Shown here: positions 48,154-64,000 of the stretch, in pieces
Layout of the letters: every line of letters begins with the position of its first letter
Position numbering within the stretch: the stretch's first letter is position 1
Sequence record: EU863408
Direction: 5' to 3' (one strand)
Source: Escherichia phage JSE
DNA length: 64,000 nt
Program-made: the position numbers and the translations under genes
The notes under the pieces: model-generated
Database searches by the model: none
The model's input: the letters and a program-made list of their open reading frames with translations, nothing else
Told to the model about the DNA's origin: nothing

Positions 48154-48192
48154 TTTTGATTCTCCTAGAAAGTGTCGTGTTTCGATGGGTGT

Positions 48193-48221
48193 ATTATGCA
48201 ATAACACCGGATCGCTGTCAA
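48193..48221 (-). promoter_or_regulatory. sigma70-type early promoter (PeSL-like)
   Basis: minus strand TTGACA, 17-nt spacer, CATAAT; conserved CGAAACACGACAC 5' leader. Confidence 0.55.
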
Positions 48222-49406: not shown

Positions 49407-49436
49407 TTTTGATTCTCCTTTGTTGTCGATGTGTGC

Positions 49437-49465
49437 ATTATGCTATACCCTATTCCGGTTGTCAA
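49437..49465 (-). promoter_or_regulatory. sigma70-type early promoter
   Basis: minus strand TTGACA, 17-nt spacer, CATAAT. Confidence 0.55.
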
Positions 49466-60324: not shown

Positions 60325-60366
60325 TTTGATACTCCTTAGTAGTTCGTGTTTCGTTTCGATGGGTGT

Positions 60367-60395
60367 ATTATGCTATACACCCTCTCTCGTGTCAA
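60367..60395 (-). promoter_or_regulatory. sigma70-type early promoter (PeSL-like)
   Basis: minus strand TTGACA, 17-nt spacer, CATAAT; GGGUGUAU/AUACACCC inverted repeat; CGAAACGAAACAC leader. Confidence 0.6.
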
Positions 60396-61291: not shown

Positions 61292-61337
61292 AATTTGATT
61301 CTCCGTTTAAGAAAGTGTGTTTCGTTTCGATGGGTGT

Positions 61338-61366
61338 ATTATGCTATAGGCCGGATCTGGTGTCAA
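61338..61366 (-). promoter_or_regulatory. sigma70-type early promoter
   Basis: minus strand TTGACA, 17-nt spacer, CATAAT; conserved leader. Confidence 0.6.
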
Positions 61367-61397
61367 CAACTTTTTTTAAAAAAAATTTTTAGGCAAT

Positions 61398-61424
61398 AAA
61401 AAAGCCACTCCGAAGAGTGGCTTA
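61398..61424 (-). terminator. intrinsic terminator
   Basis: minus RNA GCCACUC-UUCG-GAGUGGC then UUUUUUAUU. Confidence 0.6.
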
Positions 61425-61570
61425 TAGGGAAGGTAGCGAATCTTCCTTGTCTCCAACCTGCTAGCGGCCTAGCAAGTGAATGCTTTAGCGTACCGGATCG
61501 CCCATACGCTGCAATAAATGCGGCTAGGTGACGTCCAAATCATTCTAACCGCGCTGTCTTTAGTTCACTA

Positions 61571-61789
61571 TTATTTATATCGCTTTCTCTCGCGACGTTT
61601 TTGATCTTCTTCCTTGATAGAGTTAAATGCATCAAAAAGACACATGACACTAATAATAAACATAACCGTATTTTCTACGATATCCCACGGCTTCGCATCA
61701 GTACAGATCCCCCAAACGGTAAGAAATGCAAATAGTGCAGAAGAGATCACAAGCATGATACTTGCTAAGATATAAAAAGTCATTTTCAT
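61571..61789 (-). CDS. small membrane protein
   Basis: 72 aa; two TM helices, basic tail. Confidence 0.45.
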   Translation of the reverse strand: MKMTFYILASIMLVISSALFAFLTVWGICTDAKPWDIVENTVMFIISVMCLFDAFNSIKEEDQKRRERKRYK

Positions 61790-61980
61790 GGTTTTACCTC
61801 AATTCTTCGATATTCATCACACATCCACGCAGTAAGCAAGAATCCTAACACATAAGCAACAAAATACGTTAATGCTTCTTCTGGTTCTGTGCTGTGTATC
61901 ATCATTAAACCAGCTAGAACGGTCTTAACAATTACATTTAAAATAATTAGCCACGCAAATAATTTCATCGTTTGCCCCAT
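61786..61980 (-). CDS. small membrane protein
   Basis: 64 aa, hydrophobic; ATGA-coupled. Confidence 0.4.
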   Translation of the reverse strand: MGQTMKLFAWLIILNVIVKTVLAGLMMIHSTEPEEALTYFVAYVLGFLLTAWMCDEYRRIEVKP

Positions 61981-62204
61981 TTCGGTCGAGTCTTTTCAAA
62001 CTTATACATTCCGTAACAATCTCGAATCATCCACGTAACAAGAGCACCAGTCAACACAGACAATACACAGAAGAAGTAAAACGGTCCAGTTGCATTATCA
62101 ACATGAGCAAGCCATGTAAAGAAAACACATGCTAAGAATGTAAAGAACATCATAAAACACAAGAAAGCAAAATATTTTATGCTACTCATAGCGCCACCAT
62201 ACAA
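61965..62204 (-). CDS. small membrane protein
   Basis: 79 aa, hydrophobic. Confidence 0.4.
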   Translation of the reverse strand: MYGGAMSSIKYFAFLCFMMFFTFLACVFFTWLAHVDNATGPFYFFCVLSVLTGALVTWMIRDCYGMYKFEKTRPKWGKR

Positions 62205-62292
62205 CAGATCATAAGAAAACCCAACGCAATAAGAATTGCATCAAATTTAGTGAACTCAGGTCCACCTATCAACATCATTCGTTCCTGTTCAT

Positions 62293-62490
62293 TCATAGAT
62301 CACAGAGCCATCTTACAGCACCACATAAAGCGATCAAAAGACTAGGTATAAACGAGATTACAACAAGTTTACAAAAATCATCTAAGGTAACACCGGAATA
62401 GCTACCTACTGTAACAACACCGATCATCAGACACAGAAAGAAAACAAATGCAATCAGAAACAAAGTATTGCTAAACAGTTTAGTGATCAT
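62293..62490 (-). CDS. small membrane protein
   Basis: 65 aa, hydrophobic. Confidence 0.4.
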   Translation of the reverse strand: MITKLFSNTLFLIAFVFFLCLMIGVVTVGSYSGVTLDDFCKLVVISFIPSLLIALCGAVRWLCDL

Positions 62491-62684
62491 TAGACACCCC
62501 CACGACGATCAATTTCAAAAACTTTTTTACCATCAACGAAGCATGTCACAACTGCCTCGTTGACTTCCGCAAATTGTTGTGTCACCCACTTAAGGTCAGA
62601 GCGAAACAATGTTCTATTAATAACAAATGTTTTACCGCTCTTATCCTTACCCATAAATTTTGCTTTAACCATATCCAATTCCAT
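62490..62684 (-). CDS. hypothetical protein
   Basis: 64-aa ORF. Confidence 0.4.
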   Translation of the reverse strand: MELDMVKAKFMGKDKSGKTFVINRTLFRSDLKWVTQQFAEVNEAVVTCFVDGKKVFEIDRRGGV

Positions 62685-62918: not shown

Positions 62919-63293
62919 TTAAGAAAATTTTACTTCGTCTACAATGTCTTTCATGACATTGATTTCCATTCCGGTCAGAACACGTTGGAACATGTGCTGC
63001 ACATACGCTTTCAGGTATTCATTTGATGGCTTGCTATCGAAAGTCTTTTTAGTGTAGTAGTCATCACCGAAAGCTACTGTAATTACATTTTCGTCGTCGT
63101 TCCAAGCGATATAAGCAAATTTGCCGTTATCCCAGAAGCGAGCACTAATTGCTACTTTTGTTGAATCGAATCCTACTTCGCTGTGAGATTCAAGAACTAC
63201 TTGCGTACCAGTTTCTTTATGAATGTAGTAGCGGGATACTAAGTCAAAGTTACGGGTGTAGTGACATTCGAATTTATCTTTAAACATCATCAT
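62919..63293 (-). CDS. hypothetical protein
   Basis: track ORF 62919-63362 (alt start inside promoter); start MMMFKDKFECHY at 63291-63293 after AGGAGAATCAAA. Confidence 0.5.
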   Translation of the reverse strand: MMMFKDKFECHYTRNFDLVSRYYIHKETGTQVVLESHSEVGFDSTKVAISARFWDNGKFAYIAWNDDENVITVAFGDDYYTKKTFDSKPSNEYLKAYVQHMFQRVLTGMEINVMKDIVDEVKFS

Positions 63294-63330
63294 TTTGATT
63301 CTCCTAAGTGTGTTTCGTTTCGATATGTGC

Positions 63331-63359
63331 ATTATGCTATAGTCGTTTATGGTTGTCAA
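63331..63359 (-). promoter_or_regulatory. sigma70-type early promoter
   Basis: minus strand TTGACA, 17-nt spacer, CATAAT; conserved leader. Confidence 0.6.
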
Positions 63360-63364
63360 CACCT

Positions 63365-63396
63365 AAAAACAAAAAACCCCGAAAAATTTTCGGGGT
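63365..63396 (-). terminator. intrinsic terminator after 2H phosphoesterase gene
   Basis: minus RNA ACCCCGAAAA-UUUUUCGGGGU then UUUUUUGUUUUU. Confidence 0.65.
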
Positions 63397-63402
63397 ATAA
63401 AA

Positions 63403-63867
63403 TTACAGTTTGGTCGTCCACTCCAGGTCTAGATCTTCGACATACTCATGAGATCGGACAATCTCTAAATCGAACTCTAGGTCAGTGCCAAATTTACGCG
63501 CACCAACATCATAAGAAAGCGTGATATGCGGTACATATTCAGGATAATCCCACGTCGCGCCTAAAGCAGTGCCGATATCGTGTCTGAATTGCATGTAGTC
63601 GCTTTCAAATGCCAACACAAGCGCATTAGTACCGGATTGAGTTTCAAACACTTTCAGATGGCATAGAGAGCCTAAAAACTTTTCACCCTCTTCTGGGATA
63701 AACGGAACATAGACACGAGAATATAAGATAGTGCTATGCAGTTTATCACGAGGAACGGCATTAGGCAGATCGTAGAACTCCTGCAATTTTTCAATGCGGT
63801 CTAGTGTATCCTCAGTGAATTTAACAGCCGCATATGTACCTTTAACGGATTCTCGAAACGGGGTCAT
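63403..63867 (-). CDS. 2H phosphoesterase (LigT/Acb1-like); candidate anti-CBASS cyclic-nucleotide phosphodiesterase
   Basis: track ORF 63403-63873 (TTG); ATG at 63865-63867 with SD GGAGG; two H-x-T/S motifs (H44-S-T, H114-I-T); position corresponds to T4 57B. Confidence 0.6.
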   Translation of the reverse strand: MTPFRESVKGTYAAVKFTEDTLDRIEKLQEFYDLPNAVPRDKLHSTILYSRVYVPFIPEEGEKFLGSLCHLKVFETQSGTNALVLAFESDYMQFRHDIGTALGATWDYPEYVPHITLSYDVGARKFGTDLEFDLEIVRSHEYVEDLDLEWTTKL

Positions 63868-63869
63868 AA

Positions 63870-64000
63870 TCAAGCCTCCGTGATCAGTTCTACTTCCTCT
63901 TCTGCGTCTTCCGCTGCTTCGTCTTTAGGGAGAAGTGCTTTCACTTCTTCGACAATAGCATCAAGGGAAACAGTCCCGTTTTCGTCTGGCTGAATACCCA
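63870..64000 (-). CDS. hypothetical protein, 5' end outside window (C-terminal 43 codons visible)
   Basis: open frame to window edge ending ...EDAEEEVELITEA; stop 2 nt before downstream ATG. Confidence 0.4.
   Translation of the reverse strand, partial: GIQPDENGTVSLDAIVEEVKALLPKDEAAEDAEEEVELITEA

Follow-up and report, generated by a model that had tools for sequence, protein, structure and literature searches.

A Krischvirus orthologue of T4 gene 57B predicted to encode the anti-CBASS nuclease Acb1

Introduction

The product of gene 57B of phage T4 was identified as Acb1 by Hobbs et al. (2022; Nature 605:522; PMC9117128), making it the founding member of a family of anti-CBASS nucleases. T4 Acb1 cleaves 3'3'-cGAMP, cUA, cAAA, and cAAG but not cGG or cA4, and T4 Δacb1 suffers a >300-fold loss of plating on CBASS hosts (PMC9117128). 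When T4 Acb1 and nine further homologues were assayed, all 10 enzymes cleaved 3'3'-cGAMP and cAAA (PMC9117128). The reaction is metal-independent and proceeds via a 2',3'-cyclic phosphate, the cut being made 3' of adenosine (PMC9117128). The catalytic HxT/HxT tetrad of the T4 enzyme consists of H44/T46/H113/T115, the bases are stacked by the four aromatic residues Y12, W74, F107, and W147, and the adenine N6 is contacted by E141, which explains the need for an adenosine (Hobbs et al., 2022; PMC9117128). [quoted passage not shown] Escherichia coli LigT and other 2H phosphoesterases (PF02834, PF13563; PDB 5LDI) have the 2H fold and two HxT/S motifs in common with Acb1, and LigT and Acb1 both use metal-independent acid-base chemistry via a 2',3'-cyclic phosphate (PMC9117128).

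Among phages of the RB49 type, vB_EcoM-G2494 was one of the 57 phages included in the lysate screen of Hobbs et al. (PMC9117128), and a full-text literature search found no publications on Acb1 of RB49-type phages or of Krischvirus. The genomes of RB49 and phi1 are known for cassettes termed PeSLs (promoter-early stem-loop), for which a stem-loop of the GGGG...CCCC type has been described (Arbiol et al., 2010; PMC2839356) and which mediate the shuffling of ORFans (PMC2839356). Here we describe a gene at the boundary between conserved and variable DNA in a 64,000-nt stretch of Escherichia phage JSE (EU863408; hereafter the window), a gene that a sequence-only reading had put forward as a candidate anti-CBASS nuclease at the position of T4 57B.

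Gene Model and Upstream Region

The acb1 coding sequence (gene 57B) lies on the minus strand at 63403..63867 and comprises 154 codons followed by a TAA stop, a gene model supported by the open reading frame as well as by matches to Pfam PF23474, PDB 7T26, and RB49 gp57B. As read from the sequence, the start codon is an ATG at 63867-63865 and the TAA occupies 63405-63403. The ORF call (63403..63873, minus strand) opens at a TTG, but a start at 63873 was rejected because this codon overlaps the 57A stop and no ribosome-binding site precedes it; a GGAGG does stand 7 nt before the ATG at 63867. This Shine-Dalgarno sequence (63875..63879, minus strand), likewise read from the sequence, lies inside the last codons of 57A, and together with the TGA stop of 57A at 63872-63870, only 2 nt before the acb1 ATG, it identifies the ATG as the likely start of the gene.

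Both catalytic motifs could be placed within this coding sequence. The first H-x-T motif, His44-Ser45-Thr46 (codons CAT AGC ACT; 63730..63738, minus strand), is contained in KLHSTIL (K42-L48, with the His44 codon at 63738-63736) and aligns with H44/T46 of T4 Acb1. The second motif, His114-Ile115-Thr116 (codons CAT ATC ACG; 63520..63528, minus strand), is contained in VPHITLS (V112-S118, with the His114 codon at 63528-63526) and aligns with T4 H113/T115. The sequence-only reading had described a 154-aa ORF at 63403-63867 carrying two such motifs about 70 residues apart and had left the strand unstated; the ORF is encoded on the minus strand, and His44 and His114 are indeed separated by 70 residues.

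Immediately upstream lies the 3' end of gene 57A, encoding the tail-fiber chaperone (63870..64000, minus strand), which the edge of the window truncates and which was assigned from a phrog_1002 match and the RB49 annotation. The 42 codons at 63873-63998 (minus strand) match phrog_1002 with E=1.9e-7, and both RB49 gp57A and T4 gp57A belong to this PHROG. A BLASTP comparison of the 42-aa fragment with T4 gp57A gave no match, and it was the profile search that identified the fragment as phrog_1002. According to the annotations, the gene order 3-1-57A-57B is common to RB49 and T4, and acb1 of the window directly follows 57A as it does in both of these phages, in agreement with the T4 57B position proposed earlier.

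The closest named relative of the gene is that of RB49. The encoded protein is 100% identical to RB49 gp57B (NP_891697.1/AAQ15381.1; UniProt Q7Y455), the DNA within the gene differing by two synonymous substitutions, and both genes are flanked in the same way, by 57A on the upstream side and by a terminator/promoter cassette on the downstream side. This relationship extends beyond the gene, as the window derives from another Krischvirus isolate with approximately 96-99% identity to RB49-type genomes. Its last 1.1 kb match 57 phage records at 95-99% identity, and the last 24 kb of the window show approximately 96-97% identity to RB49-type genomes.

Family Assignment

The window protein matches the Pfam family PF23474, "Anti-CBASS protein Acb1," with E=1.5e-51 and a score of 174.4 bits (cut-off, 27), the match spanning positions 1-143 of the 144-position profile, and the same domain is carried by all 64 database homologues of the protein. 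The sole match in a sequence search of the PDB was Acb1 of Erwinia phage FBB1 (7T26/7T27; E=1.8e-43), to which the protein is 52-53% identical according to the joint alignment and Foldseek. BLASTP against T4 gp57B (from NC_000866) gave 47% identity over the full length with E=3e-47, and the joint alignment confirmed the 100% identity to RB49 gp57B. The homology to T4 57B/Acb1 put forward in the sequence-only reading is thus established by alignments to both the T4 protein and 7T26, and the outcome which that reading had named as refuting, a lack of alignment to Acb1, clearly does not apply.

The protein has been named inconsistently in the databases. PHROGs assigns it to phrog_755, labelled 'RNA ligase', and NCBIfam holds no model matching it. 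Homologues occur in 1,474 phage records (tblastn) and are annotated variously as 'hypothetical protein', 'RNA ligase', or 'anti-CBASS protein Acb1'. An exact-sequence look-up found the identical protein on 316 contigs, with accessions including AAQ15381.1, and the UniRef name of this protein is 'Anti-CBASS protein Acb1 n=16 Tax=Krischvirus RepID=Q7Y455_BPRB4'. Acb1 of the screened phage vB_EcoM-G2494 differs from the window protein at a single position (D129N).

Active-Site Residues

A joint alignment allowed the nine functional residues of T4 Acb1 to be transferred to the window protein, where they correspond to Y12, F74, Y108, W150, E144, H44, T46, H114, and T116, all nine being equivalent. 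The T4 enzyme (NP_049750.1) thus shares its HxT/HxT tetrad, base-stacking aromatics, adenine-contacting Glu, and lid Trp with the window protein, whose gene occupies the same slot after 57A. The catalytic histidines, which the sequence-only reading had placed at about the same positions in T4, do lie there, since H44/H113 of T4 align with H44/H114. The two proteins differ in length (152 aa in T4 and 154 aa in the window), by one 1-residue and one 2-residue indel, and in the number of the second His (113 in T4 and 114 in the window), and the window protein carries the substitutions W74F and F107Y. The 2-residue insertion, E131-F132, is seen relative to both T4 and FBB1 and precedes the C-terminal strand and lid. 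Both substituted aromatics, F74 and Y108, are identical in FBB1 Acb1, the enzyme that was crystallised and is active. The host genus of FBB1 differs.

Conservation was assessed in an alignment of 62 homologues with 31-79% identity to the window protein. H44, T46, H114, and T116 are kept in every one of them (62/62), and this invariance, together with the whole-protein Pfam and PDB matches, argues against a chance occurrence of the motifs. Tyr is found at position 12 in 61/62 homologues and Glu at position 144 in 56/62, column 74 holds F or W only, and column 108 holds F, Y, H, or W. The lid residue W150 is present in 47/62 homologues, the remainder showing mostly gaps at truncated ends.

Some Krischvirus records deviate from this pattern. 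In phage Cognac, the acb1 call is split into pieces of 64 and 82 aa, and in phage vB_Eco_TB34 the C-terminus is frameshifted and is without the lid Trp; the proteins concerned come from the same 90% cluster. These disrupted calls could be sequencing errors or could represent real inactivation; if the inactivation is real, a parallel exists in the acb1 nonsense mutant Bas43 and in Panoptes escape mutants (PMC13577387).

Predicted Structure

A single-sequence AlphaFold2 model was unusable (pLDDT 37.5), and we therefore used a model built from the 62-sequence alignment (pLDDT 91.6, pTM 0.84). Poor definition in this model is confined to residues 1-5 and 151-154, and the low confidence at residues 151-154 would fit a lid whose end is flexible. 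In a Foldseek search against the PDB, 7T26 ranked first with a TM-score of 0.86 on the query and 0.97 on the target, an rmsd of 0.9 Å, and 52% identity, followed by 7T27 (TM 0.85/0.93). Next came a phosphodiesterase of Burkholderia phage BCSR5 at a TM-score of approximately 0.7. E. coli LigT, CPDases, and Usb1 were retrieved with TM-scores of 0.5-0.63, 10-18% identity, rmsd values of 4.5-7 Å, and a probability of 1.0, the score of E. coli LigT itself being approximately 0.5.

The modelled protein has the pseudo-symmetric alpha/beta fold of the 2H superfamily with H-x-T motifs at residues 44-46 and 114-116, and by comparison with 7T26/7T27 it shows the compact 2H fold of Acb1, in which the beta-sheet forms a U-shaped pocket and the C-terminus a lid. 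The proposal that the gene encodes a 2H phosphoesterase was thus supported, as the model matched 7T26/7T27 first and LigT and CPDases more distantly. With 7T26 as the best match in the Foldseek ranking and LigT a distant one, the protein is classed as a 2H phosphoesterase of the Acb1 type and not of the LigT type.

The Region Downstream of acb1

A PeSL cassette of the kind described for RB49/phi1 (PMC2839356) is found at 63321-63396 (minus strand). It is made up of a GGGG..CCCC stem-loop, a tract rich in A and T, and the promoter TTGACA-17-CATAAT, behind which a conserved stretch includes ACAYMCATCGAAACGAAACAC. A terminator scan detected its stem-loop half 6 nt past the acb1 stop as an intrinsic terminator (63376..63396, minus strand) with the sequence ACCCCGAAAATTTTTCGGGGT and a T-run behind it. 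Its promoter half, detected in a promoter scan, is an early promoter of sigma-70 type (63331..63359, minus strand) that fits at 11/12 positions and serves the next gene. A motif scan found five copies of the extended promoter motif in the window compared to 0 expected by chance, the further copies lying at 48183-48221, 49427-49465, 60357-60395, and 61328-61366, all on the minus strand. The promoter 3' of acb1 could be aligned to the copy at approximately 61.35 kb, where a stem-loop likewise lies upstream. The conserved 3-1-57A-57B block closes with acb1, and a series of ORFans bounded by PeSLs begins directly beyond the gene; since the PeSL cassette sits directly after acb1, the gene marks the boundary between the conserved block and a hyperplastic region.

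The downstream neighbour of 57B in T4 is ipI, whereas in the window acb1 is followed by an ORFan, a second ORFan, and then dmd. The first of these (62919-63293, minus strand; 124 aa; phrog_15253) stands in the T4 ipI slot behind its own PeSL promoter, but a relationship to ipI was rejected (E=0.17), and its only Pfam match, Gp30.7 (E=0.004), was sub-threshold. Its neighbours make this ORFan a candidate counter-defence gene, as yet uncharacterised. The second ORFan encodes 52 aa and lies between the first and dmd. The latter gene (62490-62684, minus strand), which encodes the antitoxin against the host toxins RnlA/LsoA, was assigned from Pfam PF17587 (E=6.6e-15) and phrog_2102, and its T4 synonym in the RB49 annotation is 61.5. 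With only two small ORFans between them, acb1 and dmd are two counter-defence genes that are near neighbours in RB49-type phages.

Past dmd, at 61571-62490 (minus strand), there is a run of overlapping or abutting ORFs of 36-79 aa that are strongly hydrophobic and membrane-like; the small ORFs scanned in this run each belong to a Krischvirus-type PHROG (phrog_17225, 15290, 15717, and 15168). It is followed by a non-coding gap of approximately 280 bp (61292-61570), unusually long for a densely packed region, which holds a stem-loop terminator (61423-61402, minus strand) and a PeSL promoter (61366-61338, minus strand). RB49 has the same gap of approximately 280 bp between RB49p117 and RB49p118. 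Within the 64,000-nt window, no homologue of T4 Vs.4, the Acb2 cGAMP sponge, was found by tblastn (best E=0.75), and neither tRNA genes nor Rfam families were found.

Discussion

Our analyses show directly the homology of Krischvirus Acb1, its conserved residues and fold, and the synteny and signals of its gene, and we consider it very likely that this gene represents the orthologue of T4 57B in Krischvirus, encoding the anti-CBASS nuclease Acb1. The earlier wording, a candidate anti-CBASS nuclease, is supported by family, residues, fold, and synteny, and 'candidate' now applies solely to the predicted activity of the orthologue. By analogy to the characterised family members, the orthologue would be expected to have the enzyme activity and substrate range of Acb1 and to counteract CBASS in vivo.

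Membership of the 2H superfamily would also fit a LigT-like RNA 2',3'-cyclic phosphodiesterase or 2'-5' RNA ligase whose substrates are RNA ends, as in the repair of tRNA or mRNA, and not immune signals. Weak Pfam matches to 2_5_RNA_ligase2 (E=0.0011) and LigT_PEase (E=0.057), the appearance of LigT, CPDase, and Usb1 structures in the fold search (TM 0.5-0.63), and the name 'RNA ligase' in RefSeq and PHROG 755 point in this direction. However, both Pfam matches stay below the gathering scores (19.4 against 27 for PF13563, and 14.1 against 23.3 for PF02834), compared to a score of 174 for Acb1, and LigT-type structures superpose with 10-13% identity, a TM-score of approximately 0.5, and an rmsd of at least 5 Å, as opposed to 52% and 0.9 Å for Acb1. 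Based on these sub-threshold scores and the poor superposition, an identity as LigT or RNA ligase was rejected, and we regard it as extremely unlikely. The window protein is also smaller than LigT-type enzymes and has an Acb1-specific lid and base-stacking pocket, in which the features specific for cyclic nucleotides are kept, namely the four aromatics that stack on the bases, the Glu that reads the adenine, and the Trp of the lid. The label 'RNA ligase', in turn, is an older name given at the superfamily level that predates the characterisation of the family in 2022.

Assuming an enzyme of the Acb1 family, its main target in Krischvirus hosts may still differ from CBASS, for instance if it depletes the cA3 used by type III CRISPR or by other cOA systems, or its substrate range may have shifted, and 'anti-CBASS' would then describe it only in part. 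Acb1 does degrade cA3, and Panoptes guard systems of types I and II are triggered by phages that carry acb1 (PMC13577387); furthermore, the window protein departs from T4 by the 2-residue insertion and by W74F/F107Y. On the other hand, F74 and Y108 are common to FBB1 Acb1, which was crystallised with hydrolysed 3'3'-cGAMP, 10/10 tested family members cleave 3'3'-cGAMP and cAAA, and there is no sequence sign of a changed pocket, making a shifted target or substrate range very unlikely. A more specific proposal is that the Krischvirus lineage of Acb1 has a substrate range different from that of T4, such as better cleavage of 3'2'-cGAMP or cGG, or a range narrowed so as to evade Panoptes-type guards. 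This is suggested by the identity of 47% to T4, by the two residues inserted ahead of the lid, and by F74 and Y108, and we consider it highly improbable; if it were true, the disrupted acb1 calls in some Krischvirus records would reflect ongoing selection by Panoptes-type guards.

Taking the protein as an Acb1 orthologue, its mode of action may be outlined from the T4 and FBB1 enzymes. Krischvirus Acb1 would be a compact, metal-independent 2H phosphoesterase that captures the A-containing cyclic di- and trinucleotide signals of CBASS, after which the lid would close. The bases would be stacked by Y12, F74, Y108, and the lid residue W150, and the adenine N6 would be read by E144. The H44/T46 and H114/T116 tetrad is then predicted to break the 3'-5' linkage on the 3' side of adenosine by acid-base catalysis, with a 2',3'-cyclic phosphate as the intermediate. 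Once linearised, the signal would no longer activate CBASS effectors, and abortive infection would be avoided.

The gene is already known, as its family, mechanism, structure, and genomic position were published in 2022, and the protein is already named Acb1 in UniProt/UniRef and Pfam. Thus, the acb1 call opens no new question, and a known immune-evasion gene was correctly called from sequence. Its practical value is corrective, since RefSeq and PHROG labels still read 'RNA ligase' or 'hypothetical protein'. Judged by the characterised Acb1 enzymes, this Krischvirus is very probably able to degrade the cyclic-nucleotide signals of CBASS, which bears on host-range prediction and on the choice of phages for therapy against E. 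coli carrying CBASS or Panoptes.
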